Of a DNA stretch of 64,000 bases, positions 2,576-29,390 are shown piece after piece (the first letter of the stretch is position 1; every line of letters begins with the position of its first letter). The DNA is from an uncultured Acidimicrobiia bacterium (lineage in GTDB: Bacteria; Acidobacteriota; Terriglobia; Versatilivoradales; Versatilivoraceae). A program made the translations under genes and the position numbers. The notes beneath the pieces are model-generated. The model searched no databases. It was not told where the DNA came from and saw only the letters and a list, made by a program, of their open reading frames with translations. The DNA lies in assembly GCA_963786955.1 (NCBI GenBank), contig CAWBAT010000008.1:128001-192000 (forward strand), in the 5' to 3' direction.

Positions 2576-2577
2576 CT

Positions 2578-4026
2578 ATGAACTTTTTAGAGTTCCAGCG
2601 CCTTCAAGCACGGCGCGGTTTCCTGCAGCAATGTGCCGGTGGGCTGGGAACCATTGCGCTCTGGCATCTGATGGCCGGTGAAGGGAGAACGGCCATTCCA
2701 GAAGGTTCTCTCCCAGACGTCAACCCGCTAAGGCCCAAGGCGGCTCATTTTGCAGGGAAGGCCAAGAACGTCATTTTTTTGTTCATGGAAGGTGGACCTA
2801 GCCAGCTCGATTTGTTTGATCCGAAGCCCGGGCTGAGCAAGTGGGATGGCCAGTCCTTGCCGCCATCCATGACCAAGGATCTGAAGCTGGCCTTTATCAA
2901 GCCCGATGCCAAGGTTTGGTCGAGCCCGCGCACGTTCACCCGATCCGGCCAATGCGGCATGGAATTTTCTGATTACCTGCCGTATACGGCGGCCTGCGCA
3001 GATGATATTTGCATGATTCGTTCCATGGTGACGGATCAGTTCAACCATCATCCAGGCCAACTCATGATCACTTCCGGCACAGGATTGCTCGGGCGTCCCA
3101 CAATGGGAGCCTGGGTGACCTATGGGTTAGGAAGCGAATCGCAAGACCTTCCGGGATTTGTTGCCTTGACTTCAGGGGGCGCTTCTCCGGGCGCCGGCAG
3201 CGGCAATTGGGGTAATGGCTTTCTACCTTCCGTCTATCAGGGAGTTCCGTTTCGAGGCACAGGGGATCCGGTTCTTAACTTGTCCAATATTCCGGGAGTC
3301 GACACGGAAGATCAGCGGATGACACTCGATGCCATTCGCGACTTGAACCAACAGAGTTTTCTGCGTGCGGGGGATATGGAGATTGCATCTCGCATTGCTT
3401 CCTATGAATTGGCATTCCGGATGCAGTCGGTCGGACCGGAACTGCTGGATTTTTCGAAGGAGACCCCCGCCACGTTGGAGATGTATGGCGTCAACAAAGA
3501 GCCGACCCGCCCTTTCGCCACCAATTGCCTATTGGCCAGGCGCATGATTGAGCGCGGAGTGAGATTCGTCCAAATAATGCATTCGACCTGGGATGATCAT
3601 TCCGACTTGAATAAGAAATTGAAGAAGAACTGCGAAATCACCGACCAGCCCACCGCCGCTTTACTCAAAGACTTGAGACAGCGCGGGCTGTTGGACAATA
3701 CGCTGGTCATCTGGGGAAGTGAATTCGGCCGCACCCCTATGGTTCAGAGTCTTGGGCTCGCCGGGGAGAGTTGGGGCCGGGATCATCATCCTTTGGCCTT
3801 CACCGTGTGGATGGCGGGTGGGGGTGTCAAACCCGGCCAGGTCATTGGCAAGACAGACGACCTCTGCTTCAACGTGGTCGAAGATAAGATCCACGTCCAC
3901 GACCTGCATGCCACCATTCTTTATTGCTTGGGTTTGGAACACAAACGGCTCACCTATCGCCACGAAGGAAGAGATTTTCGACTTACCGACGTATCCGGCG
4001 AGGTTGTGCAAAAGCTGCTCGCCTGA
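2578..4026 (+). CDS. DUF1501 domain (sulfatase-like) protein with Tat signal
   Basis: RRGFL Tat motif; KAKNVIFLFMEGGPSQLDLFDPKP, SEFGRTP and GRDHHP motifs; usual partner of the upstream PSD1 gene, 2 bp gap. Confidence 0.9.
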   Translation: MNFLEFQRLQARRGFLQQCAGGLGTIALWHLMAGEGRTAIPEGSLPDVNPLRPKAAHFAGKAKNVIFLFMEGGPSQLDLFDPKPGLSKWDGQSLPPSMTKDLKLAFIKPDAKVWSSPRTFTRSGQCGMEFSDYLPYTAACADDICMIRSMVTDQFNHHPGQLMITSGTGLLGRPTMGAWVTYGLGSESQDLPGFVALTSGGASPGAGSGNWGNGFLPSVYQGVPFRGTGDPVLNLSNIPGVDTEDQRMTLDAIRDLNQQSFLRAGDMEIASRIASYELAFRMQSVGPELLDFSKETPATLEMYGVNKEPTRPFATNCLLARRMIERGVRFVQIMHSTWDDHSDLNKKLKKNCEITDQPTAALLKDLRQRGLLDNTLVIWGSEFGRTPMVQSLGLAGESWGRDHHPLAFTVWMAGGGVKPGQVIGKTDDLCFNVVEDKIHVHDLHATILYCLGLEHKRLTYRHEGRDFRLTDVSGEVVQKLLA

Positions 4027-12807: not shown

Positions 12808-13156
12808 TTTCAGCCTTCCTTTCCCTTATGATAGAAAAATAGATGAGTAGATGATTTTTCACAGATTCTGCCAATCCCTGTTCCCTTGTAGTAAACTCAT
12901 CTCGAATTGTAGGAGGGTTGCTGCCCCCAAGCAAGCTGTGCCTGAACGGGAGGCAAGGTACGGTGAAGACGGAGAAGTTTGTTGCTTTTGACGATACCTC
13001 TGCGCAGGTTTTCGCCCCCCCCTCACCCCCAACCCCTCTCCCGCGTTGGGGCGAGGGGAGCCGAAAATCTTCAGCGTTCTCGATACCTTGCTCACGCTTG
13101 GAGGAGAGGGCAACCGAAGATCTCTTGATTTGAATTCGAGAGGGAGGAAAACAATC

Positions 13157-15169
13157 ATGGATAGGCGAAAGTTCCTCAAAAACTCTCTGTTCGCATTGGG
13201 CGGCTCCGCTTTGACAGCAGGTTTGGAGTCCTGCAAACCCTCCAGTGTGGCAAAGTTGAACAAGAACACGAAACTCGTGATTGATTACCCACAAAAGAAC
13301 ATCCCGGTACTCGAACTCCCGCCTTGCCGCGGTGAGTGGTATGAAGACATCATCCCCGACACGCTCGACATTGCGAGCCGCTCCGAGTTGGCGATCAACG
13401 CACTAACCGGGATTACCGATCCCGATGCAGACTACGAGGTCTATTGGCAGGCCGAGCTTTTCCGTAATCCTCCGATCATGATGCATGACCATAATGACTG
13501 GGTGGCCAGCGTTGAGGGATTCATGGAAGCACTGCCGCTACTGCGGGCGGCCACGGGAAGCGATCTGAACACGCAGGTGGATTTGGCTTGGATGCAAGTG
13601 AACCTAAAGACCGTTGGGTCGGACGGCCTGGTCTACGAAATACTCAGCGGAACTCCGTGGAGCCGGCTCAATCCCTGGAGCTTCGCAACGGTTTGGAAAG
13701 CTGATGGAAGGAGCACCAGCGCCGCAGATGAGTCGGTGAAACTGGCCACCACTCCGGCGAAATGTGGGCGAGTCATCGGGGCCATGACGGTTTATTACCT
13801 TCGCGATAGAAACCCCGTCTGGATGCAAACGAGTGAGCGGATGATTCAGCGTTTGCTGGAATTGACGGTTGACCGGGGTGACTTTGCGTATGTTCCTTGG
13901 GGCGCCTACGAGCCTCACGCAAAATACGGTCCCCAAGCCAAGATGCCAACTGGGTTTGACTCCGTCGACTACGGAAACATCCGAATGATTCAGGGCCTGG
14001 CGCAATACTACCGGGTAACCGGGTACGAGCCTGCTCGTCAATTAGCCGCGAAACTAGTGGCCTACGGGATGGGGCCTGCGGAGTACTATGACGAACAAGG
14101 GCGCTTCCTTTTTTCACCACTGGAACGAGAAGCGCTGATGACCTCAACGCGGATGAAGAGGAATTACCCGGAGGCAAAGGATGCCAAGTTGGGCGGGCAT
14201 TTCCACGCCCATACCATCGGAATGATCAGCATCCTGGAGTATGCCGCGGCGGTGAAGGATCAAAAGGCGCTGCACTATATCAACTCGGGATTCCAGTGGG
14301 CCATGACCCAGGGCTCAACGCTCGTGGGATTCTTTCCCGAACTGGCCATCAATAATCGCTACCTTACCTGCGAGAGTTGCGAGGTGGCGGATATGATCGG
14401 GATGGGTGTGAAACTGTCCGACGCGGGTGTGGGAGATTATTGGGACGACATCGACCGCTGGGTGCGGAACCAATTCACGGAACAGCAGCTTACCGATGCG
14501 AAATGGTTTTACGAGCTGGCCCAGACTCAGCCTGTGAAGCCGGTGGCATTCAACGAAACAGCCGAGCGGTTGGCGGAGCGGAATATCGGCGCTTTTGCCG
14601 GCTGGGCGAGCGCCAATGAGTGGGCGACGTTGATCGGCATTCAACAATGCTGCCTGGGAAATTCCGCACGGGCACTCTATTATGTGATGGAAAGCATCGT
14701 GCAGACGCAAGGGAAGCAGTTGCGCGTGAATCTGCTGCTCAACCGGGCGACCCGGTGGGTTGACGTGTACAGCTACATCCCATACGAGGGCCGAGTGGAA
14801 CTGAAATTCAAGAAACCCTCTGAGAAAGTGTTGGTCCGTGCTCCTGAGTGGATCAAGAGCGGCAGCCATGAGATTGTGTGTCAAGTAAACGGCGCAAGGC
14901 GAAACTGTCATTGGCAAGGCCGCTATCTGGATGGGGGCCACGCCGTACCGGGCGATAAATTCGTCGTCACATTCCCGATCGCAGAACGGACGGTAAAGGA
15001 GACGATTGGAGATGTCCCCTATACGTTGACTATCAAGGGCAGTACCGTTACTTCGATCGATCCACCCGGTACCATCGGTCCACTTTACAATCGCGCTTAC
15101 TACCGCCAGGAGGAAGCACCCCTTCGGAAAGTAAAACGCTTCCTGCCTGAACAGACCATTGTTTGGTAA
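13157..15169 (+). CDS. Tat-exported (lipo)protein, GH127/GH146-like cysteine glycosidase (beta-L-arabinofuranosidase-like)
   Basis: RBS GGGAGG; DRRKFLK with an LESC lipobox; Zn/Cys motifs CESC and QQCCLGN; C-terminal beta-sandwich (PYEGRV, VRAPEW). Confidence 0.65.
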   Translation: MDRRKFLKNSLFALGGSALTAGLESCKPSSVAKLNKNTKLVIDYPQKNIPVLELPPCRGEWYEDIIPDTLDIASRSELAINALTGITDPDADYEVYWQAELFRNPPIMMHDHNDWVASVEGFMEALPLLRAATGSDLNTQVDLAWMQVNLKTVGSDGLVYEILSGTPWSRLNPWSFATVWKADGRSTSAADESVKLATTPAKCGRVIGAMTVYYLRDRNPVWMQTSERMIQRLLELTVDRGDFAYVPWGAYEPHAKYGPQAKMPTGFDSVDYGNIRMIQGLAQYYRVTGYEPARQLAAKLVAYGMGPAEYYDEQGRFLFSPLEREALMTSTRMKRNYPEAKDAKLGGHFHAHTIGMISILEYAAAVKDQKALHYINSGFQWAMTQGSTLVGFFPELAINNRYLTCESCEVADMIGMGVKLSDAGVGDYWDDIDRWVRNQFTEQQLTDAKWFYELAQTQPVKPVAFNETAERLAERNIGAFAGWASANEWATLIGIQQCCLGNSARALYYVMESIVQTQGKQLRVNLLLNRATRWVDVYSYIPYEGRVELKFKKPSEKVLVRAPEWIKSGSHEIVCQVNGARRNCHWQGRYLDGGHAVPGDKFVVTFPIAERTVKETIGDVPYTLTIKGSTVTSIDPPGTIGPLYNRAYYRQEEAPLRKVKRFLPEQTIVW

Positions 15170-15243: not shown

Positions 15244-17349
15244 ATGAAAGTGTACAAAAACCGTTTTCAGATTCTTAGGCGTCATACAGGTTATCTTTTG
15301 CTTACAGCCTGCTTTTGTCTGGGGGCATCCGAGTCCGGATGGGCGCAAATTCGCGCAGAGTTGCGAGTCACTCCGAGTATTCCACTTCACAAAGTTGATC
15401 CTCACATTTACGGACAGTTCCTCGAACATTTCGGTCGGGTCATTAACGGTGGGTTGTGGGCCGAGTTATTACGCAATCGAAAGTTTTATCCGGTTGATCC
15501 CGACCGCATTCATGTCGCGGATCCCTGGAAACCCGAATCAGACCTCAGCGCCGTCAGCTACGTCATTGATCGGTCGATTACGCTGGATGGAATCTCTTCC
15601 CAGCGGATCTCCACTTTCGGAAAAGAGTCCAGCTGGAGGGGAATCCGCCAAACTGGATTCGATCTGCTGGGTGGGAAAGAATATGTGGCCTATGCCTGGA
15701 TCCGGACCGGATCGGGGAAGGGAAATGTTTCCTTCCGTTTGGAATCGGCTGAAGGTGTCGCCGCCGCCCATGCTGAGGTGCGGTTGGAACCGGGCGACTG
15801 GAAGAAATACGAAGTGCGCCTGACGCCAGATCGCGATTTGCGACCAGCCGTTTTCCGTCTGGCCTTCGATGCTACGGGTCAGAACTGGGTGGGTGAGGCC
15901 TCGCTCATGCCGGCCGACAACATCGGTGGCATGAGGCGTGACGTCATTGAGCTCACAAAGAATCTGGGACCAACCATTATGCGCTGGCCGGGGGGCGGCT
16001 ACAGTGATTCCTACGATTGGCGCAAGGCGATCGGCCCACGCGAACGGCGTCCGCCTCAAGACATCCTGCCTTACGGGCAGCCTTACGGTTATGACAACGG
16101 CATCGACTCCGATGATTTTGGGACCGACGAATACATGAACTTCTGTCGGTTAGTCGGCGCAGATCCTTACATCAGTGCGAATTTTGGTTCGGGAACTCCG
16201 GAAATGGCAGCCCAATGGGTGGAGTACTGTAACGGATCGGTTCAAACGACTATGGGTGCTCGCCGGGCGGCCAATGGTCATCCTGAACCCTACGGAATCA
16301 AATACTGGACGATCGGGAATGAGATTTGGGGATCGTTCGAACTCGGTTGGATGAATGCAGAAGGATACTCGACTTACTATGCCCCGTTTGCCAAAGCCAT
16401 GCGGGCTGTGGACCCGACGATCCAGATCGTTGCCGTGGGCATGTTCCACGACCCGAACGTCCGGACGTGGAATGAGACCGTCCTCCAGCAGGAGTGGCCG
16501 CAGATTGATTTACTTTCTCTCCATCATTATTTTACAGGGCTTTTTGCACTGCCGGAATGGCGGAATAATCCTCTCCAGGCTTACAACGCGATCGTCGCCG
16601 AGCCAACCATTGCGGAACAGCGTGCCCGTGAAATGATCTCTCTGATGGATCAGATCACGGCAGGCCGGAAGAAGATTCTCATTGCTTTCGACGAGTGGAA
16701 TCAATTGACCTTGGATTTCCCTCCGCCCGTCAACACTCCGGAGCGCTCTGAACAGAACCAATTCATTGACCTGTTGAACAAGACGGGTCTGGACATCAAC
16801 TTGACCCATCGGGACGGGATCTTTGGCGCTCGTATGTTGCAGCTCTTCATGCGGCTGGGTGACCGCATCCCGATCGCCATCCGGACTCACCTGATCAACA
16901 GCCTCGGCTCAATCCGCAGTGATAGCACGCGTTCGTACATCACCGCTTCGGGCAAGGTCATGCAGCTCTACCGCTGGCACTCTGGCAGTGAACTCGTCAA
17001 GGTTGAACAGCAGTCTCCCGAGTTTGATGTCCCCGAGCAAGGATGGAAGGGCATCTCTTACCTCGATGCGGCCGCTACACGCTCAGCGGATGGGGCGAAG
17101 CTCTATCTGCATTTGATCAATCTTCACCCGAGTGAATCGATGGGGCTAAAGGTGGCCATCGCCCAAAGCGAGGTGGACCCCAAGGGAGACCTCTGGCAGA
17201 TTGCGCCGCAGGACTTTATCACCAGAAACGACTTCGGTGTGACAAACGTAGAAATCACCCATGAACAAAAGACAGGGTTACGCCCGGAGTTTACTTTACT
17301 CCTCCCACCTCATTCAATTTCAGTACTTGAGCTTCAGCTTCGAAGATAG
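15244..17349 (+). CDS. GH51 alpha-L-arabinofuranosidase-like protein (paralog of 10738-12807)
   Basis: Signal peptide; IYGQFLEH, MRWPGGGYSD.YDW, FGTDEY, GNE and DEWN; colinear with the other GH51 over its whole length. Confidence 0.88.
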   Translation: MKVYKNRFQILRRHTGYLLLTACFCLGASESGWAQIRAELRVTPSIPLHKVDPHIYGQFLEHFGRVINGGLWAELLRNRKFYPVDPDRIHVADPWKPESDLSAVSYVIDRSITLDGISSQRISTFGKESSWRGIRQTGFDLLGGKEYVAYAWIRTGSGKGNVSFRLESAEGVAAAHAEVRLEPGDWKKYEVRLTPDRDLRPAVFRLAFDATGQNWVGEASLMPADNIGGMRRDVIELTKNLGPTIMRWPGGGYSDSYDWRKAIGPRERRPPQDILPYGQPYGYDNGIDSDDFGTDEYMNFCRLVGADPYISANFGSGTPEMAAQWVEYCNGSVQTTMGARRAANGHPEPYGIKYWTIGNEIWGSFELGWMNAEGYSTYYAPFAKAMRAVDPTIQIVAVGMFHDPNVRTWNETVLQQEWPQIDLLSLHHYFTGLFALPEWRNNPLQAYNAIVAEPTIAEQRAREMISLMDQITAGRKKILIAFDEWNQLTLDFPPPVNTPERSEQNQFIDLLNKTGLDINLTHRDGIFGARMLQLFMRLGDRIPIAIRTHLINSLGSIRSDSTRSYITASGKVMQLYRWHSGSELVKVEQQSPEFDVPEQGWKGISYLDAAATRSADGAKLYLHLINLHPSESMGLKVAIAQSEVDPKGDLWQIAPQDFITRNDFGVTNVEITHEQKTGLRPEFTLLLPPHSISVLELQLRR

Positions 17350-17432
17350 AGAAAGTCCGCATTGGGAGGGGAAAGAAGCCGCAGACCGCAGGAAATTCCC
17401 CCAACGTGGGAGAGGGTGTCCGCTAGGTTTTT

Positions 17433-17474
17433 CAACTCCCCTCCTTGTTTAAGGAGGGGATAAAGGGGTGGTGG
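17433..17474. repeat. REP-like palindrome family 2 (CCCCTCCTT-N3-5-AAGGAGGGG, often followed by AGGGGTGGT)
   Basis: caactcccctccttgtttaaggaggggataaaggggtggtgg. Related copies near 33831-33903, 41289-41311, 45204-45227, 47613-47646, 49587-49706, 50892-50973, 54356-54454 and 56687-56711. Confidence 0.75.
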
Positions 17475-17528
17475 TTTTCACCCTACTGCTCATCCTAAGA
17501 AGTCATCGAAATTTTTTTTGTTTCATCA

Positions 17529-18728
17529 CTACTCATACTTCGCTCGGCCAAACAGGGTGAGGCCTACGACGTAAATCATACACAAAGCCGGAACCAGCAT
17601 TGCGACGCGCATCCCGATGTGGTCTCCAATCCAACCTTGTAAGGGCGGGACGACCGCAGCGGCGATGTAGGCTGTGCATAAGAGCCCCGAAATAGTGCCG
17701 TGATAGCCTTCGAAGCTGTTGATCGTGCCACTGAAGAGGAGAGGATAGAGGACTGAGGTGAAAAGCCCACAGCCTGCAAAGCCGATGGCTGTGACCAGCG
17801 TTGATCCGAACATAGCCACGAACACACTGACCAGCGCCATCACCGAGCAGAAGCGCATGACTTGGACAGTTCCAAACCGTTTCATGACGGCGCCGCCGAG
17901 GAGGCGTCCCATGCCCTGCATCCCCAAAAACAGCGCGAAGACGAACGCCGGCAGGCTGGGAAACACTTTCCCCAGAAATGTGGCGGCATTTGGGTTTGAA
18001 ACAGCTGCGGGCACGCCGTGAACATCTTCGAAGAATTTCGGAATCCAGAAATACATTCCTATTTCCGCCGCAGTATAAAGATACACCCCCAGACCGTAGG
18101 TCAGCAGAATCGGGTTGCGCAGCAATTTCCCTATCGCATGGAGATGGATTCCTTCGGTGTCCTTGGCACGGGGTGGGAAAGTGGAAAAGGCCAGAAAGGC
18201 CAGCAACACCAGGCAGACGATGGCGAATAAAAGGTAGTAGGCCTGCCAAGGCCTGCCGGTTCCACGAATGTATGCCAGGAGAAAGATGGCGAGGAACCCT
18301 CCAAACGTGGCACACGCGATCGTGAACGTCAAGTTGCGATGATAGTTCTGCGGCGTATCGAGTTGCTGGATCATGGGGCTGCCACTGGTTTGGAGCATTG
18401 TGATCCCAACACCGATCGCAAAGATCAAGGAAAGCAGCAACAAGTAGCTGTGCGACTGGGAGATCCAATAGCAGCCCAATGCCATCAGCGATACGCCTGC
18501 CAGGATCACTCGTCGCGCGCCGAGGCGATCTGCCAGCAAGCCACTGGGTATCGCGAACAATGACATGGCCACGGAAGCTGCTGACGCCAGCAGGCCTGCT
18601 GCAAAACGACTGAGTTGAAAATCCCGGATGATGTCCGGAGTGAGAGCGCCTAAAACACCCATTAATCCAAAAGTGAAATAGGCAAAAAGCATGACCCAAA
18701 GTAGGGAGGCAGGACGTTGCTGAGGCAC
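17529..18728 (-). CDS. MFS sugar transporter, FucP/GluP-like
   Basis: About 12 hydrophobic helices; motif A GLLADRLGARR; GITMLQTSGSP, YLYTAAEIG, TSVLYPLLFS and PPLQGWIGD resemble the fucose permease family. Co-oriented downstream of the activase. Confidence 0.8.
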   Translation of the reverse strand: MPQQRPASLLWVMLFAYFTFGLMGVLGALTPDIIRDFQLSRFAAGLLASAASVAMSLFAIPSGLLADRLGARRVILAGVSLMALGCYWISQSHSYLLLLSLIFAIGVGITMLQTSGSPMIQQLDTPQNYHRNLTFTIACATFGGFLAIFLLAYIRGTGRPWQAYYLLFAIVCLVLLAFLAFSTFPPRAKDTEGIHLHAIGKLLRNPILLTYGLGVYLYTAAEIGMYFWIPKFFEDVHGVPAAVSNPNAATFLGKVFPSLPAFVFALFLGMQGMGRLLGGAVMKRFGTVQVMRFCSVMALVSVFVAMFGSTLVTAIGFAGCGLFTSVLYPLLFSGTINSFEGYHGTISGLLCTAYIAAAVVPPLQGWIGDHIGMRVAMLVPALCMIYVVGLTLFGRAKYE

Positions 18729-18907
18729 GAAAACCTTTCCTTGGTTGAGAGGTGTTTGGAATCTTTGAGGATTGAGGATTAGATCTTATCGACCCTTGAA
18801 ATCCTTGATACTTCTCACTTCAAATTGAATGTGCCTCCTGGAGGGTTGGACTCCACGAAACCGTCTTTTGGACGGGCGCCTGTCAAGCCAACAGCATAAG
18901 AATACGA

Positions 18908-19951
18908 TCATGCCGGCGCGGAGCCGTTCGGATTCAGTAAAGGCACTCCTTGTTCACGAAGCCAGTGGATCCAACCTTCGAGCTGATTAAGACGAAGCGG
19001 TTGATCGCTCACATGGACAGCGGGTTTCAATCCAAAACGTTCGAGTTTGCTCTTCCCTAGTGGATGATAGGGAAGCAGCTGAACCCCTGTGAGATTCGGC
19101 AACGAACGGGACAATGCGGCAATCGCCGCGAAGTGATCTTCCCGGTCGTTAAAGCCGGGAACGATGGGACACTGCAGTTGGATCCTGGCTCCTGCGTCGT
19201 GCAGGAAACGAAGATTTTGCAGGATGAGTTGGTTGGAGTGGCCTGTAAACTCAGCGTGGCGACCCGGATCGGTTTCCTTAAAGTCGTAAAGGAACAAATC
19301 GACCAAAGGTAAGACACGGAGGAATCGTTCCCGATTCGCAAAGCCAGCGGTTTCGAGACAACGATGAATCCCTTGTTCCTTAGTTGCGGACAGTAAGGCA
19401 ACAGCGAAATCGATCTGCGCCATGGGTTCTCCGCCGGACAGAGTTAAACCGCCGCCTGAGGTGACGTAGAAAGCTTTGTCCTGAACCACTTCCTTCATGA
19501 CCTCCTTCACGCTCATTGGGCGGCCCACGATTTCCACCGTACGCGTATCGCAAACCTCGGTGCAGTGGCCACAAGTAATGCAGTGCTCGCGGTCATACAC
19601 ATGGGTTATCGTCGAGTCGTCGGATTCTGAAGCGACAAGATGATGGGCGCCTTGGGGACACACTCGGACACACTCCCCGCAGCCCATACATTTCTCAGGA
19701 AGGAATGAAATGATCGGTGAAGGGCTCATCCCTTCGGGATTGTGGCACCACAGGCAGCGAAGGGGACAACCTTTGAGGAACACCGTTGTGCGGATTCCGG
19801 GTCCATCATGGATCGAGAAACGCTGGATATCAAAGACGCGTCCAAAAGGTTCGCCATTGATCCTTGCATTCTCAAACACAGTTTCAGCTTGCGGATTTTC
19901 TAGCATGCATTTCCAACCAGCGACGTCCTGAACGGTCGTCGCAAGTATCAA
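18908..19951 (-). CDS. Glycyl-radical enzyme activating enzyme (radical SAM with 2x[4Fe-4S] ferredoxin insert)
   Basis: IQRFSIHDGPGIRTTVFLKGCPLRCLWCHNPE; CMGCGECVRVC and CITCGHCTEVC; GGLTLSGGEP; LLPYH. The TTG start overlaps the GRE stop; an alternative ATG is at 19906. Confidence 0.95.
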   Translation of the reverse strand: MILATTVQDVAGWKCMLENPQAETVFENARINGEPFGRVFDIQRFSIHDGPGIRTTVFLKGCPLRCLWCHNPEGMSPSPIISFLPEKCMGCGECVRVCPQGAHHLVASESDDSTITHVYDREHCITCGHCTEVCDTRTVEIVGRPMSVKEVMKEVVQDKAFYVTSGGGLTLSGGEPMAQIDFAVALLSATKEQGIHRCLETAGFANRERFLRVLPLVDLFLYDFKETDPGRHAEFTGHSNQLILQNLRFLHDAGARIQLQCPIVPGFNDREDHFAAIAALSRSLPNLTGVQLLPYHPLGKSKLERFGLKPAVHVSDQPLRLNQLEGWIHWLREQGVPLLNPNGSAPA

Positions 19952-22174
19952 TGTTCACAGAGGATTCGATCCACAACGAACTGACGCATCTCGGGTGAAA
20001 GACTGGCAAAATAAGCACTGAATCCCGTTACGCGAACGATTAGATCCGGAAACTTCGAGGGGTCTTTATGCGCCTCGAGGATCTGTTGGTTGTTCAAGAT
20101 GTTGATATTCACCTGAGTGCCGCCTAACTCACAATGCCCGCGAATCAAGGCCGCGACTTTGTCAACATCGTCGGGAGTGTTCGTGAGGCTAGGATCGAGG
20201 TCGATCTGGAGTGGAGAGGCGTTTCCGTATCCGGACTGAACCGAAGCCACGGCCACGGCCAGTGCGGTCGGAGCGCCATCCTTGCGGAAGCCCGGGTCGG
20301 GATTGGCGCCATGAGAGATGGGGTCACCGGCATGGCGGCCATTGGGTGTGGCCCCGATTTTCCTTCCCATCGAAAGGTTAAGCACCCAGGAGAAAAGTCC
20401 GGGAATCATCATGAATCCCCGAGGCGTGGTTTTCTCTTTCACCGTTTCGGAGAAGGCCTGGGAGATGCGAACTGCCCACTCATCGCCTAAGGAGCCGCCG
20501 CTTCCGAAGCGTGGAGAGTTCTTCATCATGATGCGAGCCCGCTCACCCTCGGGGCCGGTCCAGTTTGATTCAAGGTGCGTGCGCAACTCCTCCCACGTGA
20601 GGCGGGGCTGTTTCTCGAGACGTTGTTCCAATGCGGCAAAGGAATCGGCCGCGGTGGCCAGTGCCGCGCCATCCACTCCGAAGGTATAGTACTCAACGCC
20701 GCCGTTGCTGGCGTCGAGGCCCTTTTCGATGGTTCCATGGCAAAGGAGATCGAGGACTAGTTCCGGGAATACCTTGTGAAAGTGTTCGTACTGGAAGTCG
20801 AACCCTTTGGCAACCGTGTCGACGGCAGCGTGAAGGTGCTGCCGGAATCGCTTCCAGAGGACAGCGACGCTGGGTTCGACCGCCGGGTGCGCCAGCACGT
20901 CTCGCCACGCGACTTCGAAGATGGCCGCAAAATTAACCTTGGCGATATCCATGAGCGCATACTCGCGCCCCGGAATGGCCAACCAATGGCAACCGGCATA
21001 GGCCCGCTCGCGGGCCAGCTCAAGGGGGAATCCATTGGCGGCGAAGCCCGCGACGGTGTTATCTACCCCCAGAAATTTGGGCACTCCGCAACGGTCTTCA
21101 AACAGGATTTCGACGCCGCGCCGGATCAACCGGGGGTCCACGTTCTTTCCGACGCAGACTCCAATGTTTGCCGGAATCCGCAACCGGTGAGCCGCTTCGA
21201 GGATTAGAAAAGATACGGGATTGGTGGCTTCCTGGCCGCGGGCATCCGGACCACCGAGTTGGATGTAAGCGGGATCGCGCACCAGATGGCACCCGATATG
21301 GAAGATGGCTTCTTCATCAGTCAGCCGACCGGCTTTGGTGTCGGCTAGATAGTAAGGCAGCAGGAGCACATCCAGGCGGCCGAGGGATCCGCTGGTGTTG
21401 TACATGCGGGCGATACTCTGGTACCAAAGAATCCACTGACAGGCTTCACGGAAGGTTCGCGGAGGGTTCGAAACCAAATACTCGTTCATCTCGGCAATCT
21501 CGAGCAGGTTTTGTCTCATCTCCTCGTTCTGGGCAGCCAGGCGGCGCGCAGCCTCGGCGTGACGCTGAATCCAGTCTTGTGCCCCCAGAACAACGTGCTC
21601 CAGCCCTGCATAGAAATCTTCACTCGCAGGATTGTTGACACGGTAACGATTAATTTTCTCAAGCAGCCCGCCCCAGCCGAGATTGAGCCCTATCTCCATG
21701 TCCTGGCACATGTGATTCACACCACCGATGGCCGGGATGGTTTGATACTTGGCATGTTCAGCAAGCAATTCGGAACAATCAATATCAGGATTCCAAACGA
21801 CTGTCCGGTAGGCCATGAAATTCACCATATAGGCCCCGGCAAGCGAGGACAGGGGATCGATGTAGACGGGATGAACTTCGAGAAGTCTGCGAAAGTTTTC
21901 CCCGGTGGAGCGAGGCCCGAAGAAACCACCACTGCGGATGATTCGGCGTGGGCCTGAACGTGTTCATGATGACATCAGTGAAATAGACTCCTGAACCGCC
22001 GAGAGTCTCGACGGTTTCGCGGATTTCCTTGGGCGGCAGGATGATCGCAAAATCATCGAAGTCCATGGCGCCGCGGACCTGCTGCTTTTCAAGCGTCTGC
22101 TGCTGTTTGCTCTCGCGAAGTGCCGCCAGGCGGTCATTAATGGAAAGTTGTTCGATGGTTCCTGTTGCTTTCAT
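19948..22174 (-). pseudogene. Glycyl-radical enzyme (PFL superfamily), copy B, with a single +1 frameshift near 21934
   Basis: Colinear with copy A. ORFs 21785-22174 and 19948-21828 join if one base is removed (CAT CCG C AGT vs CAT CCC AGT in copy A), restoring 741 aa. IVRVTGFS glycyl motif and GCHW Cys loop. The frameshift may be an assembly error. Confidence 0.85.
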
Positions 22175-22225
22175 AAGGAAGGTCTCCTGTACCGATTCTC
22201 AAGAATACGAAGGCCGCCGCAAGTA

Positions 22226-24451
22226 TCAATGTTCACAGAGGATTCGATCCACAACGAACTGACGCATCTCGGGTGAAAGACTGGCAAAATAAGCACTGAA
22301 TCCCGTTACGCGAACGATCAGATCCGGAAACTTCGAGGGGTCTTTATGCGCCTCGAGGACCTGCTGGTTGTTCAAGACATTGATATTCACTTGAGTGCCG
22401 CCTAACTCGCAATGCCCGCGAATCAAGGCCAAGACCTTGTCAACATCCTCGGATGTGTTCGTGAGGCTGGGATCGAGGTCAATCTGGAGCGGAGAGGCGT
22501 TCCCGTATCCCGGCTGAACCGAAGCCACGGCCACGGCCAGTGCGGTCGGAGCGCCATCCTTGCGGAAGCCCGGGTCGGGATTGGCGCCATGAGAGATGGG
22601 GTCGCCCGCATGCCGGCCATTGGGTGTAGCCCCGATTTTTCTTCCCATCGAAAGGTTGAGCACCCAGGAGAACAGGCCCGGAATCATCATGAAACCCCGG
22701 GGGGTGGGTTTTTCCTTCACGGTCTCGGTAAAAGCCTGGGAAATGCGAACTGCCCACTCGTCGCCTAAAGAACCGCCGCTTCCGAAGCGCGGGGAGTTCT
22801 TCATCATGATGCGAGCGCGCTCACCTTCGGGGCCCGCCCAGTCTGATTCCAGGTGCGCGCGCAACTCTTCCCACGTCAGGCGGGGCCTTTTCTCGAGACG
22901 TTGTTCCAATGCGGCAAAGGAATCGGCCGCGGTGGCCAGTGCCGCGCCATCCACTCCGAAGGTATAGTACTCAACGCCGCCGTTGCTGGCGTCGAGGCCC
23001 TTTTCGATGGTTCCATGGCAGAGGAGATCGAGGACAAGTTCCGGGAAAATCTTGTGAAAATGTTCGTACTGGAAATCGATACCCTTGGCCACTGTGTCCA
23101 TTGCAGAACGCAAGTGTTGCCGGAATCGCTCCCACAGCACGGCGACGCTGGGCTCGATCGTCTTGTCTGCCAACATCTCTCGGAGCGCCACTTCGAAAAT
23201 AGCGGCCAGATTCACTTTGACGATATCCATGAGCGCATACTCGCGCCCCGGAATGGCCAGCCAGTGGCAACCCGCGTAGACGCGATCGCGAGCTAGCTCC
23301 AGGGGAAATCCATTCGCGGCAAAGCCCGCGACGGTATTATCTACCCCCAGAAATTTGGGCACTCCGCAACGGTCTTCAATCAGAATTTCGACGCCACGCC
23401 GGATCAACCGGGGATCCACGTTCTTGCCGACGCACACTCCAATGTTTGCCGGAATCCGCAGCCGGTGAGCCGCTTCCAGGATCAGGAAAGAAACGGGATT
23501 AGTGGCGTCCTGACCGCTGGCATCCGGACCGCCGAGTTGGATGTAAGCGGTGTCGCGCACCAAGTGACATGCGATATGGAAGATGGCTTCTTCATCGGTC
23601 AGCCTTCCGGCCCGGGTGTCGGCTTCGTAGTAAGGGAGGAGGATTACATCGAGCCTACCGAGGGATCCGCTGCTGTTGTACATGCGGGCGATACTCTGGT
23701 ACCACAGAATCCACTGGCAGGCTTCGCGGAAAGTTCGCGGCGGATTCGAAACCAAATATTCGTTCATCTCGGCAATCTCGAGCAGATTCTGTTTCATCTC
23801 CACGTCCTCGGCAGCCATGCGGCGCGCAGCCTCGGCGTGACGCTGAATCCAGTCTTGTGTCCCCAGAACAACGTGCTCCAGTCCTGCATAGAAATCTTCA
23901 CTCGCGGGGTTGTTGGCCCGGAAACGATTGATTTTTTCGAGGATACCTCCCCAGCCCAGTTTCAGCCCCATCTCCATATCCTGGCACATGTGCTGCACGC
24001 CGCCGATGGCCGGAATAGTTTGATACTTGGCATGTTCAGCAAGCAGTTCGGAAGAATCAATATCCGGATTCCAGACGACCGTCCGGTAGGCCATGAAATT
24101 CACCATATAGGCTCCGGCAAGAGAGGATATGGGATCGATGTAGACTGGATGGGTTTCGAGAAGTCTGCGAAAATTTTCGCCATTGGAGCGAGGCCCGAAG
24201 AAACCACCACTGGGATGATTGGGCGTTGGACTGAACGTGTTCATGATCACGTCAGTGAAATAAACTCCCGAGCCACCAAGAGTCTGTATGGTTTGGCGAA
24301 TTTCCTTGGGCGGCAGGATGATTGCGTGATCATCAAAGTCCATGGCGCCGCGGATCTGCTGCTTTTCAAGCGTCTGGTGCTGTTTGCTCTCGCGCAGCGC
24401 CGCCAGGCGGTCAATAGTGGAAAGTCGTTCCATGGTTCCGGTTGGTTTCAT
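22226..24451 (-). CDS. Glycyl-radical enzyme (PFL superfamily), copy A, intact
   Basis: PPRTFREACQ, SLGRLD, IQLGG, AGCHW Cys loop, GATPNGRHAGDPISHG and C-terminal LIVRVTGFSAYF glycyl-radical motif; RBS AGGAG. Confidence 0.95.
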   Translation of the reverse strand: MKPTGTMERLSTIDRLAALRESKQHQTLEKQQIRGAMDFDDHAIILPPKEIRQTIQTLGGSGVYFTDVIMNTFSPTPNHPSGGFFGPRSNGENFRRLLETHPVYIDPISSLAGAYMVNFMAYRTVVWNPDIDSSELLAEHAKYQTIPAIGGVQHMCQDMEMGLKLGWGGILEKINRFRANNPASEDFYAGLEHVVLGTQDWIQRHAEAARRMAAEDVEMKQNLLEIAEMNEYLVSNPPRTFREACQWILWYQSIARMYNSSGSLGRLDVILLPYYEADTRAGRLTDEEAIFHIACHLVRDTAYIQLGGPDASGQDATNPVSFLILEAAHRLRIPANIGVCVGKNVDPRLIRRGVEILIEDRCGVPKFLGVDNTVAGFAANGFPLELARDRVYAGCHWLAIPGREYALMDIVKVNLAAIFEVALREMLADKTIEPSVAVLWERFRQHLRSAMDTVAKGIDFQYEHFHKIFPELVLDLLCHGTIEKGLDASNGGVEYYTFGVDGAALATAADSFAALEQRLEKRPRLTWEELRAHLESDWAGPEGERARIMMKNSPRFGSGGSLGDEWAVRISQAFTETVKEKPTPRGFMMIPGLFSWVLNLSMGRKIGATPNGRHAGDPISHGANPDPGFRKDGAPTALAVAVASVQPGYGNASPLQIDLDPSLTNTSEDVDKVLALIRGHCELGGTQVNINVLNNQQVLEAHKDPSKFPDLIVRVTGFSAYFASLSPEMRQFVVDRILCEH

Positions 24452-24614
24452 AAGGAAGGTCTCCTGTATCGTTTCTCAAGAATACGAAGGAAGCAAAATT
24501 CTACTAAGAAGACTCGAGGGGTGAATCAAACAAGATTCAAACTGACACTGCCGTGCGTGCGTTGGGAATGTTGCCCCCGGCACAGAGCAAACCCACGATT
24601 ATTATAGCGTCGTA

Positions 24615-24769
24615 CTTGTTCAAATGAATACAAGATTACTTTCATTATTTACCAAAATATGCTTTGGTATGTTGAAAAAATCATCAACCAAGCGACCGGT
24701 CAGCCGTACCGATAACATTAAATGTATAGCCGAAGTCTTATTGACAAAATAAAATTGCTTCGGCTTAAT
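24615..24769. promoter_or_regulatory. Divergent promoter region (GRE operon / GH3) with sigma70-like promoter and three palindromes
   Basis: TTGACA at 24741-24746 with a weak -10 region (CTTAAT 24764-24769); IRs AGCCGAAG/CTTCGGCT (24728-24765), TACCAAA/TTTGGTA (24650-24669) and CTTGT-N10-ACAAG (24615-24634). Confidence 0.5.
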
Positions 24770-24840
24770 GTCAGGCGCACGGGCACAGATAGCATTTCTG
24801 CATACTCAGGAGCTACTTACATATTCGCTAGGAGGGAATA

Positions 24841-27543
24841 GTGAATCGATCAAAGTACGGAATTATCGGGAAAGTTCTTCTCGGAAGTTTATGGGTCCTG
24901 ATGGTAGCGAGCCTGCTCCTGCAACCCGCGTATTCTCAAGAGGCAGGGGAGTCTGCGGGGCAAGCATTTCGCAATCCATCGTTACCTCTGGGGCAGCGCG
25001 TCGATGACTTGATTTCAAAAATGACCCTCGAGGAGAAAGTGCTTCAGATGCAGAATGCGGCTCCAGCGATTCCCAGGCTGAGGGTTCCAGCCTATGACTG
25101 GTGGAGTGAAGGACTGCATGGGGTAGCTCGTTCAGGGCATGCCACGGTATTTCCGCAAGCAATTGGAATGGCGGCCTCCTGGAATCCCGACCTCATTTTT
25201 CGCGAAGGCCGCGTCATCTCCACCGAAGCCCGAGCCAAATACAACCAGGCCCAGCGGGAAAATATCCACGGCACTTATTTTGGACTCACGTTTTGGTCAC
25301 CCAACATCAATATCTTTCGTGACCCTCGCTGGGGACGCGGTCAGGAGACCTACGGAGAAGATCCCTATCTGACCGGAAAGCTGGGAGTTGCCTTCGTCAA
25401 GGGAATGCAAGGGGATGATCCAAAATATCTGCAAACCGTAGCGACACCCAAGCATTATGCCGTTCATAGCGGTCCAGAGTCGAAGCGGCACGGGTTCAAC
25501 GTGAATATATCCACACATGATCTGGAGGATACGTACCTACCGGCTTTTCGTGCAACCGTCGTAGAAGGGAGCGCAGACTCGGTGATGTGCGCTTATAATT
25601 CCGTGGACGGTGAGCCGGCTTGTGCCAATCCATTCCTGCTTCAAAAGACGTTGCGGGATGCCTGGGGTTTTCAGGGTTATGTCACTTCCGACTGCTTCGC
25701 CATCACGGATTTCACCGCCGGGCACCACTTCACACCGGATGCCATGCACGCCTCGATCGCGGCGGTGCGCGCCGGGACAGATCTTACTTGCGGGGAAGAG
25801 TATGTGACACTGGCAAAAGCCGTCCAAGGGGGGTTGATCAAGGAAAGCGAGCTCGACACTTCACTGCGACGCTTATTTACGGCGCGGTTCCGGCTTGGCA
25901 TGTTCGATCCACCGGGTGCGGTTCCTTTTGATCAAATCCCCTTTACGAAGAATGACTCCCCCGAACATCGAAACCTTGCCTTGCAAGCTGCCCGTGAATC
26001 GATGGTGCTGCTTAAGAACAAAGATGGAGTGCTCCCCCTCAAGCCCAGCGTGAAGAAGATCGCGGTGGTGGGCCCGAATGCCGAAGCGTTGATTTCGCTG
26101 GAAGGGAACTACAATGGGGCCCCATCGAAACCCGTATTACCGCTGGAGGGCATGCGCAGACAGTTTGCAGGCAAGGCCGAAGTGCTCTACGCGCAGGGCT
26201 CTTCCTTTGTGGCGGAATTGCCCGTGCCAGTCCCTAGTACGGTGTTGCAATCCCGTGCACAATTGACGAACTCAGGACTCAAAGCCGAGTATTTCGCGAA
26301 TCTTGACTTCACAGGGAAGCCGGAGCTCGTGCGCCTCGATCCGCAGATTCAGTTTGACTGGAGTGGCGCGTCCCCCGCACCGGGAATTCCCATGCACGCC
26401 TTTGCCGTGCGCTGGAGCGGAACTCTGACTCCGCCAGCCCCCGGAGATTACACATTTGGGATTGAACAACCATTCTGCTGGCCTTGTGAAGACAAAGAGA
26501 CTTTCAGCCTCTATTTAGATGAAAAGCTCGTGTTGAGCAGCATCCAGGAAAATCGTAACCCGGCGGTACCGCAGTTTCAGACGCATTTCGCGGATGCGAA
26601 GCCACATAATTTTCGCCTGGAATATACCCACCGGGCGGAATTGTACGCTGCGGGCCTCACGCTTGTCTGGAAGGCACCAGCCGAAGTGTTGCGCGAAGAA
26701 GCCGTAAAGACAGCCCGACGCGCTGATGTGGTCGTTGCATTCATCGGGCTCTCACCGGGATTGGAAGGCGAGGAGATGGGTGTCCGCGTTGAAGGCTTCA
26801 ATGGGGGGGACCGCACAGACATCGGTTTGCCGCGTGCTCAGCAGGATCTAGTGGAGGCGTTGAAAGCCACCGGGAAACCTCTGATCGTGGTGCTCATGAA
26901 TGGCAGTGCGCTTGCCGTTAATTGGGCCGAGGAACATGCCGCGGCAATTCTGGAAGCTTGGTATCCGGGCGGGGAAGGCGGCACGGCGATTGCTGAAACG
27001 CTCGCCGGCCTGAACAATCCTGGCGGGAGGCTGCCCATCACCTTCTACGCCTCGCTCGACCAGTTTCCTTCGTTTGACGAATACTCCATGCAAAATCGAA
27101 CCTACCGGTATTTTCGGGGCAAACCGCTCTATGGATTTGGCTACGGCTTGAGTTATGCAAAGTTTGCTTATAGCAAACTCAAGCTCTCTTCGTCCCAGGT
27201 CAAGGCCGGCGATCCGCTTAAGCTCGAGGTCAATGTGCGCAACACCGCGAAGGTCGCGGGCGATGAAGTTGTGCAGCTCTATCTTTCGAAACATGAAAAC
27301 GCCCCAGCGCAGCTGGTCCGTGCGCTGCGGGGATTTGAGCGGATTCATCTGGCCCCGGGTGAAACGAAGCAAGTCACATTTGCGCTGAGTCCGCGTGAAT
27401 TGAGCCTGGTTACAGAACAAGGAGAACACGCGATTCTACCCGGCAAATATCAGTTATTTGTAGGAGGCAGCCAGCCCGGGCAGGGCTCATCGGGTGCCGA
27501 GGCAAGTTTTGAGACGATCGGCGAAGTGAAATTACCCAGGTAG
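24841..27543 (+). CDS. GH3 beta-glucosidase/beta-xylosidase with PA14 and Fn3-like domains
   Basis: Signal peptide; WWSEGLHG, WSPNINIFRDPRWGRGQETYGED, KHY, VTSDC nucleophile, PA14 insert (GLKAEYF..FAVRWSG), LEGEE and LRGFERIHL. Confidence 0.95.
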   Translation: MNRSKYGIIGKVLLGSLWVLMVASLLLQPAYSQEAGESAGQAFRNPSLPLGQRVDDLISKMTLEEKVLQMQNAAPAIPRLRVPAYDWWSEGLHGVARSGHATVFPQAIGMAASWNPDLIFREGRVISTEARAKYNQAQRENIHGTYFGLTFWSPNINIFRDPRWGRGQETYGEDPYLTGKLGVAFVKGMQGDDPKYLQTVATPKHYAVHSGPESKRHGFNVNISTHDLEDTYLPAFRATVVEGSADSVMCAYNSVDGEPACANPFLLQKTLRDAWGFQGYVTSDCFAITDFTAGHHFTPDAMHASIAAVRAGTDLTCGEEYVTLAKAVQGGLIKESELDTSLRRLFTARFRLGMFDPPGAVPFDQIPFTKNDSPEHRNLALQAARESMVLLKNKDGVLPLKPSVKKIAVVGPNAEALISLEGNYNGAPSKPVLPLEGMRRQFAGKAEVLYAQGSSFVAELPVPVPSTVLQSRAQLTNSGLKAEYFANLDFTGKPELVRLDPQIQFDWSGASPAPGIPMHAFAVRWSGTLTPPAPGDYTFGIEQPFCWPCEDKETFSLYLDEKLVLSSIQENRNPAVPQFQTHFADAKPHNFRLEYTHRAELYAAGLTLVWKAPAEVLREEAVKTARRADVVVAFIGLSPGLEGEEMGVRVEGFNGGDRTDIGLPRAQQDLVEALKATGKPLIVVLMNGSALAVNWAEEHAAAILEAWYPGGEGGTAIAETLAGLNNPGGRLPITFYASLDQFPSFDEYSMQNRTYRYFRGKPLYGFGYGLSYAKFAYSKLKLSSSQVKAGDPLKLEVNVRNTAKVAGDEVVQLYLSKHENAPAQLVRALRGFERIHLAPGETKQVTFALSPRELSLVTEQGEHAILPGKYQLFVGGSQPGQGSSGAEASFETIGEVKLPR

Positions 27544-27589: not shown

Positions 27590-28228
27590 GTGTCCAACAT
27601 TCACCGACTCAAGACCACGGATAAGTTATTCTTCATTACAACCAATTTGAACATAGGTGATCGGCCGTTTAACGAACCGGAATACCAGATCGTTGCCGAA
27701 ACGATCAACAGCGAAAGGCGGCGGCTCGGTTTCTTACTCTTTGGCTATGTACTGATGCCCGATCACTGGCACGCGCTCATTTGGCCCCCGTTGCCGATCA
27801 GCATATCGGGCATTTTGCGGAATGTGAAACGGGTGTCGTCGTCCAAGATCAACCGTCTGCGGCAAACGAGCGGGTCACGGTGGCAGCATCAGTTCTGGGA
27901 TCGGTTTGTCCGCGATACCCAGGAATTTGGAGAACGGTTGAAGTACATGCACATGAACCCGGTCCGCAAGGGTTTGATCGAGAAGCCAGAACAGTGGCGT
28001 TGGTCCAATTACAATAATTTCTCCCTCGACAAATCCATCGTGGCCATCTGTCCAGTCCAAATCGACTATGTTCACCTACCAGACAATTACCGTGCGAAAC
28101 AATCGGTAGCCACAATTGAACGCTGTTCGTTCAATCGTGGATGGGGGCGTGTGAATTACGTGGTATTTAGCTTCGCACATCCAGCCGTTCATGCTGGCGG
28201 AGAGGAGAGACGAGGGCCCAGAGGATGA
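27590..28228 (+). mobile_element. REP-associated tyrosine transposase (RAYT / Y1 HUH, IS200-like)
   Basis: FFITT; HUH motif YVLMPDHWHALI; WQHQFWDRFVRD; catalytic Tyr in YMHMNPVRKGL; W.WS. The C-terminus runs on into the convergent MFS gene. Confidence 0.88.
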
Positions 28229-29390
28229 GCACGCAAATCATCGGCATGAGACCAAATCCGATGAACACAGGCACATAAGAATGGTGGTCAACCACCCAAC
28301 CGGTTAGCAGGGCGAATACCATCCCTCCAAATCCCGATCCCATGCTGGCGAGTCCCCAAATCGAACCCACGACGTTTTTTGGAAACAAGTCTGCCGGAAA
28401 AGCCAGCATATTGGCCACGCAACCGGTGTATCCGAGCATCGCCAGAGAAACGAGCGAAATCGAGATGGACGCGCTCTCCACCAACACGGCTGGAATCGTG
28501 GAGGCCATCAGACAGGCGAAGACCGTCACCGAAACTTTCCGGGCTACATTCAGCGAGACATTGCGCCGGATGAGAAATGCCGCTAACCAGCCTCCCATAA
28601 CATTACCGAGACAGGCGAAGGCAAATGGGATCCAGGCATACCGGCCAATTGCGTTCAAGTCAAAGTGACGGGCGCGCTTCAAATATTCCGGAAACCAGAA
28701 AATATAAAAGTACCAAACGGGATCCAGAAAAACTTTGGCTAGCGTGAAGCTCCAAACGAACCGCGTGCAGAAGAGCCGCCAGGTGGAAATCTTCAGGGGC
28801 TTTTCTTCCTGCTCGCTCTGGGGCGGGGTGTAGTACACGAGCAACCAAATGGCTACCCAGATCAGCCCCGTCGCTCCCAGGAAAACGAACGCCGCACGCC
28901 ATCCGAATTGCAGCACGATCCAGACCACTACAGGAGGTGCCAGGATCGCTCCTACCGATGAACCACTATTGAAAATTCCCGAGGCAAGTGCCCGTTCGGA
29001 AACAGGGAACCATTCGGCTACTACCTTGACGCCTCCTGGCCAGTTGCCGGCCTCACCCATTCCGAGCAAAAAACGATAAACACCAAGCGACCCTGAGCCA
29101 TTGGCTAATCCGTGCAACATGGCAGCCAGCGACCACCAGGCTGCGGTGAGTGCGTAGCCCATCCGCGTTCCAAGGCGATCAATCAGCGCACCGGAAACCC
29201 CGTTCATGATGGTGTAAGCGAGCATGAAGGCAAAGATGACTCTGGAGTACGTCACGTTGGTCATCTTGAATTGGTCAATCAAGAGAGGGGCGACAACGGA
29301 AAGTGTCTGGCGGTCCAGGTAATTGATGGCCGTGGCCCAAAACACCAGGGAAATCATCAACCACCGCGTTCGTGGGTTTTGTTTTTGCAC
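28167..29390 (-). CDS. MFS transporter, ExuT/hexuronate (ACS family)-like
   Basis: RW..ISLVF.ATAINYLDRQTLSV, RFLLGMGEAGNWPG, EWFP.SERALASGIFNSG and DPVWYFYIFWFP.YL. Confidence 0.9.
   Translation of the reverse strand: MQKQNPRTRWLMISLVFWATAINYLDRQTLSVVAPLLIDQFKMTNVTYSRVIFAFMLAYTIMNGVSGALIDRLGTRMGYALTAAWWSLAAMLHGLANGSGSLGVYRFLLGMGEAGNWPGGVKVVAEWFPVSERALASGIFNSGSSVGAILAPPVVVWIVLQFGWRAAFVFLGATGLIWVAIWLLVYYTPPQSEQEEKPLKISTWRLFCTRFVWSFTLAKVFLDPVWYFYIFWFPEYLKRARHFDLNAIGRYAWIPFAFACLGNVMGGWLAAFLIRRNVSLNVARKVSVTVFACLMASTIPAVLVESASISISLVSLAMLGYTGCVANMLAFPADLFPKNVVGSIWGLASMGSGFGGMVFALLTGWVVDHHSYVPVFIGFGLMPMICVLILWALVSPLRQHERLDVRS

Follow-up and report, generated by a model that had tools for sequence, protein, structure and literature searches.

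Glycyl radical enzymes (GREs) carry out chemically hard reactions under anaerobic conditions and newly assigned classes of these enzymes have revealed pathways for choline, hydroxyproline, isethionate and anhydro-sugars. According to a June 2026 review (PMC13450708), all six C–O eliminases, CutC, the C–S lyases and three isomerases retain a Cys-x-Glu (CxE) motif, in which the Glu forms a hydrogen bond with the substrate, and a Cys-Cys pair is found only in pyruvate formate-lyase (PFL) and TdcE. Here we analysed a 64,000-nt stretch of DNA from a soil or sediment bacterium (referred to below as the window; contig CAWBAT010000008.1 of assembly GCA_963786955.1, positions 128,001–192,000), which encodes two paralogous GREs (GRE1 and GRE2), a radical-SAM activase and a transporter of the major facilitator superfamily (MFS). 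In GRE1, Trp397 replaces the Glu of the CxE motif and there is no Cys-Cys pair; thus, the protein is a member of the GRE superfamily that lacks both the characteristic feature of the eliminases and isomerases and that of PFL. The four genes probably form a functional catabolic module, which comprises the GRE in two paralogous copies, its dedicated activase and a fucose/glucose-type MFS importer. The further proposal that this GRE represents a new reaction class, which applies thiyl chemistry to free sugars or their derivatives without a Glu in the Cys loop and relies instead on a ring-stacking Trp and an Asp/His pair, is put forward tentatively.

The described enzymes most similar to GRE1 are PflD and YbiW, the 'anhydroglycolysis' isomerases, which convert 1,5-anhydromannitol-6-phosphate and 1,5-anhydroglucitol-6-phosphate to 1-deoxyfructose-6-phosphate (PMC13450708; PDB entries 8yjo, 8id0 and 8id7). 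PflD is the best match of GRE1 both in sequence (E = 2.6e-66) and in fold (TM-score 0.81). Like GRE1, PflD and YbiW are single-subunit enzymes with an activase of the eliminase type and, according to the review, their substrates are derived from sugars and a gene for a sugar transporter lies beside theirs. However, these isomerases are 24–30% identical to GRE1 and have Glu where GRE1 has Trp, and their loci carry components of the phosphotransferase system (PTS) and deal with phosphorylated sugars, whereas the transporter found here is an MFS protein and there is no kinase. The score of GRE1 in the PflD-type equivalog family NF007437 is low (249.1 bits versus the cut-off of 1109). The B12-independent glycerol dehydratase (1r8w) and 1,2-propanediol dehydratase (5i2g and 9rco), both of them C–O eliminases, have the same fold as GRE1 (TM-scores of 0.80–0.82) and share with it the catalytic Cys and the equivalents of His164 and Asp447 (His154 and Asp409 in GRE1), but they are 21–23% identical to GRE1, the Glu435 of glycerol dehydratase is replaced by Trp397, GRE1 has a deletion of about 12 residues ahead of the IQLGG strand and no microcompartment or aldehyde-processing genes are found at this locus. 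The PFL enzyme PflB belongs to the same superfamily and has the glycyl radical domain, but aligns with GRE1 only over the C-terminal 190 residues (1.8e-26) and, unlike GRE1, has the Cys-Cys pair.

The gene order GRE-GRE-activase-MFS proposed in the earlier note on this DNA was borne out by the open reading frame (ORF) calls and translations, with all genes co-oriented on the minus strand. GRE1 (22226–24451) is a single open frame of 741 amino acids with Pfam matches to the PFL-like domain (PF02901, 302.9 bits) and to the Gly_radical domain (PF01228, 51.7 bits, residues 620–722). Its thiyl loop, G394-C395-H396-W397, is encoded at 23261–23272 and its glycyl radical motif, RVTGFS with Gly717, at 22295–22312, the latter being normal, as had been stated. 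GRE2, the tandem paralogue of GRE1, occupies 19948–22174 and is represented by two ORFs in the assembly; its thiyl loop, GCHW, lies at 20983–20994, so that the positions previously given for this motif were exact in both copies. The stop of GRE2 overlaps by 4 nt the ORF of the activase (18908–19951), a radical SAM enzyme with a ferredoxin-like insert that provides two extra Cys clusters. The activase scores 339.9 bits in TIGR02494 (cut-off 174) and contains the Pfam domains Radical_SAM, Fer4_12 and Fer4 (residues 81–140). The last gene of the set (17529–18728) encodes an MFS transporter of the FucP/GluP (fucose/glucose-galactose) type, with a 111-bit match to MFS_1 (PF07690). In the PDB, it matches only the L-fucose:H+ symporter FucP, with two entries (best 3o7p, 2.8e-15), and its description as FucP-like therefore holds at the level of relatedness to the FucP/GluP family but not of proven membership, as the scores in the equivalog families are below their cut-offs (78.6 versus 202.6 for gluP, TIGR01272; 61.7 versus 280.4 for fucP, TIGR00885). 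The genes for GRE1, the activase and the transporter are all intact, and the G+C content of the GRE genes (0.57–0.58) is slightly above that of most of the window. GRE1 is separated from a divergently oriented GH3 gene by an intergenic region (24452–24840, 390 nt) that presumably contains the promoter. A scan of positions 17200–25000 for promoter and terminator consensus sequences returned numbers rated as chance-level (5 promoters versus 4.1 expected and 15 terminators versus 8.7 expected), and these counts carry no information on the operon structure.

In alignments with GREs of known structure (phmmer), Cys395 falls at the position of the catalytic Cys in PflD, HpsG, CutC and glycerol dehydratase, and Trp397 at that of the Glu of CxE. 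The loop segment of GRE1, YAGCHWLAIPGR, aligned to VVGCVELSIPGR of PflD, and in the alignment with glycerol dehydratase Cys395 corresponds to Cys433, Trp397 to Glu435, His154 to His164 and Asp409 to Asp447. Thus, the identification of GCHW as the thiyl loop, the presence of Trp in the position of the catalytic Glu and the absence of a second Cys next to Cys395, all of which the earlier note had read from the translation, agree with these alignments. The note was also right that the protein is short (741 amino acids versus 765–850 for the solved relatives) and that the segment ahead of the IQLGG strand is reduced: 12–15 or so residues directly before this strand are missing in comparison with PflD and glycerol dehydratase. 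An AlphaFold2 model of GRE1, built from a 59-row alignment of its relatives, had a pLDDT of 93.4 and a pTM of 0.92, and a Foldseek search with this model returned about 30 solved GREs at TM-scores of 0.75–0.82, with eliminases and isomerases at 0.78–0.82, so that GRE1 is predicted to have the ten-stranded barrel fold. The top structure match, PflD (8yjo), is 24% identical to GRE1; as no solved structure exceeds this value, no member of the clade described below has been solved. GRE1 is far under the cut-off of every NCBIfam GRE equivalog.

A search of 5.8 billion proteins yielded 7999 scored candidates and 2160 matches at E ≤ 1e-20. The best 120 of these 2160 matches are 64–97% identical to GRE1 and nearly all are about 740 amino acids long; the motif GC(H/Q)W was found in all 121 near homologues, including the two copies from the window, with His in 111 and Gln in 10. 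Among the 1.84 billion representatives at 50% identity covered by a second search, the motif takes the form GC(H/N/Q)W in matches down to ∼33% identity and GC(F/Y/Q/G/P)W at 26–30% identity, and CxE families appear from ∼30%. Phylogenetic trees were built from those of the best 150 representatives that had at least 600 amino acids, together with the query and E. coli PflD, YbiW and PflB, and thus depict the query's best matches and three named references rather than the whole superfamily. In the FastTree tree (94 rows, fast MAFFT mode), the 26 Cys-x-Trp (CxW) rows are set apart from all others by a branch with an SH-like support of 98, and the same branch received an SH-aLRT support of 99 in a short IQ-TREE search of 55 rows, which comprised all 26 CxW rows, the three references and a random draw of 26 from the other 65 rows. 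PflD and YbiW fall among the CxE rows, outside the CxW side. Trp is found in all 26 clade representatives. G166, D278, A327, C395, W397, D409 and D487, as well as P610, G612, R613, P625, A701, G717 and F722, are invariant across the 59 rows of the clade alignment, and H154 and E404 are conserved in at least 90% of these rows. Directly after the catalytic Cys, members of the near subclade have His, Gln or Asn, and those of the far subclade have Phe, Tyr, Gln, Gly or Pro. The observation that His follows the Cys therefore applies to both copies in the window but not to the clade as a whole, and the idea of this His as a new base does not hold across the clade, since a position that varies in this way does not hold a universal base. 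No characterized CxW enzyme was found in the open literature, a search that extended to neither subscription journals nor supplements, and none came up in the sections consulted of the June 2026 review (PMC13450708) or in a term search of a 2024 paper on aminoacyl-radical enzymes. The tree supports, the low equivalog scores and the 24% identity to the best structure all support the earlier view of a distinct GRE branch: the CxW clade is large and old and no characterized member of it was found.

The mechanism that we propose for GRE1 is conditional throughout. The activase, whose family installs the glycyl radical, would be expected to act at Gly717. The imported compound would be a sugar or a sugar derivative that is neutral and carries no phosphate, set free by the glycosidases encoded around the module; a free sugar or derivative is favoured because the importer is an MFS protein and the operon includes no kinase or PTS genes. 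The thiyl radical of Cys395 would abstract a hydrogen atom from this compound, and Trp397 might stack on the sugar ring in place of the deprotonation of a hydroxyl. Acid/base help could come from His154 and Asp409 and perhaps from Glu404 or Asp487. The resulting substrate radical would undergo cleavage of a C–O bond, by dehydration or ring-opening isomerization, before the hydrogen is taken back. In glycerol dehydratase, the residue aligned with His154, His164, protonates the leaving hydroxyl (PMC13450708). An alternative is that the enzyme catalyses a known GRE reaction, such as diol or polyol dehydration (e.g. of the 1,2-propanediol to which fucose or rhamnose gives rise) or an opening of an anhydro-sugar ring as by PflD and YbiW, with the base moved to Asp409, Asp487, Glu404 or His396. 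PflD, propanediol dehydratase and glycerol dehydratase are the closest solved relatives in both sequence and fold, the equivalents of His164 and of Asp447 (presumably a pocket-lining residue of glycerol dehydratase) are kept, the acidic residues E404, D409 and D487 are specific to the clade and the adjoining transporter is FucP-like. Nevertheless, we regard this alternative as unlikely: the clade is split from all CxE rows with the supports of 98–99 and is at most ∼30% identical to them, the equivalog scores are far too low (249 versus 1109 for PflD-type NF007437), the loop before IQLGG is deleted and genes for microcompartments, an aldehyde dehydrogenase, a PTS, a kinase or an aldolase are missing from the operon.

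The distribution of the GRE is patchy. At E ≤ 1e-100, it was found in both of two genomes of the same genus but in none of 28 other genomes of the family and none of 30 of the class. A search of GTDB species genomes returned 71 loci, all from metagenome-assembled genomes (MAGs) and representing at least 12 phyla, mostly Chloroflexota/Anaerolineae and Acidobacteriota, with further hosts among Lentisphaerae, Planctomycetota, Poribacteria, Armatimonadota, KSB1, Spirochaetales, Bacteroidota, Clostridia, Limnochordia and Bathyarchaeia; by their record titles, the nearest loci are from Acidobacteriota/Terriglobia, except for one at 92% identity that is titled Acidimicrobiia. This pattern fits a horizontal spread of the GRE, and the lineage studied here probably acquired the module at about the genus level and then duplicated the GRE gene. 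One related locus, L065, shares synteny with more than 20 kb of the window, at a nucleotide identity of 85–89%. Its record is labelled 'uncultured Acidimicrobiia' and the other near relatives are assigned to Acidobacteriota or Terriglobia, which makes this MAG taxon label doubtful. An ORF resembling IS200/Y1 transposases (27590–28228, plus strand; PF01797, 9.9e-09) lies 3 kb from the GRE cluster and overlaps the end of a second MFS gene (28167–29390).

Both GREs of the earlier note are present and carry GCHW, but only GRE1 is one open frame; the frameshift in GRE2 had been overlooked. An extra base at 21935 (minus strand; column 296 of the DNA alignment of the two genes) splits the reading frame of GRE2 into parts of 129 (21785–22174) and 626 (19948–21828) amino acids. 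GRE2 differs from GRE1 at 243 of 2223 nucleotides and 65 of 741 amino acids, and the duplicated unit takes in ∼42 nt of upstream sequence. With base 21935 skipped, GRE2 contains no further stop and its dN/dS ratio against GRE1 is 0.116 at a dS of 0.41, which shows that it has long been kept under purifying selection and makes either an assembly error or a very recent lesion likely. Since no sequencing run shared half or more of the sampled words of this stretch (best share 0.38), contigs from four sediment metagenome runs, which represent relatives of the source organism, were aligned to positions 21500–22400: the extra base is missing from all five contigs that cover the site, which come from three of these runs. 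Loose ends of contigs at 22212/22213 point to relatives with one GRE gene followed directly by the activase sequence. L065 likewise has one GRE copy, 89.6% identical to GRE1 and 87.5% to GRE2; this L065 copy is itself fragmented by frameshifts, and no tandem GRE pair was found in any of the 62 other loci. A canonical PFL-like gene of the same genome (contig C6, 1062280–1064038; locus L079, 1426–2925 and 2876–3685), with a 541-bit match to PF02901, is likewise broken, giving two ORFs of 499 and 269 amino acids that overlap, and is thus a second frameshifted gene of the GRE family. Two such genes in one assembly hint at assembly indel errors and, because the canonical PFL gene is split and the GRE of L065 is fragmented, we lean towards an assembly indel at 21935, the alternative being a very recent real lesion.

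These data also bear on the possibility that the module has lost, or is losing, its function in this genome, with GRE2 a real pseudogene and GRE1 perhaps a relic of a horizontally acquired cassette. The frameshift in GRE2, the split PFL gene on C6, the IS200-like transposase gene 3 kb away and the patchy distribution would all be compatible with decay. We nonetheless consider it improbable, as GRE1, the activase and the transporter are intact and GRE2 has a single lesion, low dN/dS and no other stop, with the extra base absent from the related contigs; the frameshifts in both GRE2 and the L065 GRE would fit the indel errors of long-read assemblies.

The window as a whole represents a glycosidase island, with an amylase-like gene, a GH63/MGH1-like gene, two GH51 genes, a GH3 gene with a PA14 domain and a GH116 gene, as well as GHL6-like genes, a GH67N-like gene and an esterase. 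The neighbouring GH51 pair had been taken, together with a GH127-like enzyme, as pointing to arabinose or other pentoses. One of the pair (15244–17349) does match arabinofuranosidases in the PDB (1e-70), although the Pfam support is weak for both genes. The putative GH127-like enzyme (13046–15169) had no Pfam match at E ≤ 0.01 and no PDB sequence match at E ≤ 1; this ORF (plus strand, 707 amino acids) lies between the two GH51 genes. GH51-like genes (cluster c18) recur in four loci, the window included, and because the other three are near relatives, the pentose assignment reflects local neighbours only; with other glycoside hydrolase families in the same island, it is weak.

To compare the neighbourhoods of the related loci, ORFs were predicted with a simple caller and clustered by BLAST, and genes within five ORFs of the GRE were counted in the 62 of 71 loci that held a GRE ORF, singleton genes being left unclassified, so that all the counts are lower bounds. 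An activase is found near the GRE in 29 of the 62 loci, a recurrent transporter cluster in 20, a recurrent glycoside hydrolase cluster in 12, a Gfo/Idh/MocA-family protein or Zn-dependent alcohol dehydrogenase (Zn-ADH) in 14, a URO-D-fold protein in 10 and an MR/MLE enolase-superfamily protein in six; at least one of these clusters other than the activase occurs in 38. The FucP-like transporter that follows the activase (cluster c4) is found in nine loci, the window and eight near relatives. The anticipated conserved sugar-transporter neighbourhood is therefore seen as a recurrent transporter cluster in a part of the loci but not as a conserved operon, and the link to an imported sugar that the note had drawn is plausible, in view of the FucP-only PDB match and the sugar-type neighbours in 38 of 62 loci, but loose. 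We conclude that the link of the clade to carbohydrate genes is real and consistent, if loose.

Several observations weigh against the proposal of a functional module that acts on sugars. GRE2 is frameshifted in the assembly and the residue that follows the catalytic Cys varies across the clade. All chemistry beyond hydrogen abstraction is what we infer, and the pocket-facing orientation of Trp397, His154 and Asp409 is presumed. The operon contains no kinase, aldolase or dehydrogenase that would suggest the product. Across the related loci, there is no conserved operon: an activase is not nearby in 33 of 62, no recurrent sugar-type cluster is seen in 24 of 62 and the FucP-like transporter accompanies the GRE only in the window and its eight near relatives. 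Finally, Gfo/Idh/MocA proteins are not significantly enriched next to the GRE (15 of 225 genes in the near set, the two nearest neighbours on each side, versus 3 of 106 in the far set, genes at least six genes away in the same loci; Fisher p = 0.20) and, for this reason, no specific partner enzyme is claimed.

Another reading is that the substrate is not a carbohydrate and that the nearby sugar genes are incidental in glycosidase-rich organisms. The 24 loci without recurrent sugar-type neighbours, the non-significant Gfo/Idh/MocA enrichment and the recurrence of URO-D-fold proteins in 10–13 loci could be read in this way, as the URO-D-fold family includes methyltransferases and decarboxylases. 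However, the GRE is accompanied by transporters of the kinds that carry sugars (FucP-like, LacY/nucleoside-like MFS and SBP_bac_1 ABC), the recurrent neighbours include glycoside hydrolases, Gfo/Idh/MocA and MR/MLE proteins, FGGY kinases and xylose-isomerase-like barrels, and the top 25 families of either neighbour set showed no conspicuous genes of pathways for aromatics, amines or sulfonates. There is, in our opinion, only a slight chance that the substrate is of another kind. The activity given in public annotations, that of a PFL or ketoacid formate-lyase, is effectively refuted despite the PFL-like Pfam match and homologue names such as 'formate C-acetyltransferase' and 'pyruvate formate lyase family protein', as GRE1 has G394-C395 where PflB has Cys-Cys, scores 97.3 bits in TIGR01255 against a cut-off of 994.2, matches PFL structures over residues 553–738 only (E = 1.8e-26) and coexists with the separate canonical PFL-like gene elsewhere in the genome (541 bits to PF02901). 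Decarboxylases and X-succinate synthases were likewise considered and rejected, with no Cys-Cys pair, no small-subunit genes and much weaker similarity (2.3e-22 for BSS and 5.4e-20 for HPAD).

Certain genes of the window recur close to CxW enzymes in other genomes. A DeoC/LacD-family aldolase gene followed by a URO-D-fold gene is located at 56818–58728, 33 kb from the GRE. In 11 other loci, homologues from this URO-D cluster (c3) are encoded within 10 kb of a CxW GRE; the c3 gene of a Bathyarchaeia locus (L028) is an immediate neighbour of the activase gene. Anaerolineae MAGs (L064, 3507–13222, and L063, L036, L019 and L022) have a layout that differs from the acidobacterial one, with an MR/MLE gene, ABC permeases, a GH5-like gene, a gene for an unknown protein of 130 amino acids, a second MR/MLE gene and the GRE, followed downstream by a GH20-like gene on the opposite strand; this layout suggests a link to sugar acids in that subgroup. 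Elsewhere in the window, a Planctomycete-type cytochrome-domain pair is encoded at 26–4026 (plus strand), in which the gene for a PSCyt1/PSCyt2/PSD1 (DUF1549/DUF1553) protein comes before that for a DUF1501 protein. At 45263–47485, an ARPP-1 domain protein (348 bits) is divergent from a helix-turn-helix regulator with WYL and WCX domains. The highest G+C content of the window, 0.596, is found at 48001–50000, and no ORF of 180 or more amino acids is listed between 48497 and 51455.

Three features are new at this locus: the GRE gene is duplicated in tandem and one of its copies is frameshifted, the acidobacterial module combines GRE, activase and FucP-like MFS transporter, and its occurrence is patchy at the genus level. 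The clade to which GRE1 belongs is a deep branch that lacks the base residue of all characterized eliminases and isomerases; at least 26 of the 150 best representatives, each standing for a cluster at 50% identity, belong to it. The locus offers a compact test set, a GRE with its own activase and a candidate importer. Assignment of the reaction would correct a large mis-annotation, 'formate C-acetyltransferase', in public records and would probably place a further step in the anaerobic degradation of carbohydrates in soils and sediments. If the proposed reaction is the true one, the CxW enzymes would represent an unrecognized and widespread pathway of anaerobic carbohydrate metabolism in bacteria of soil, sediment and gut and in Bathyarchaeia.

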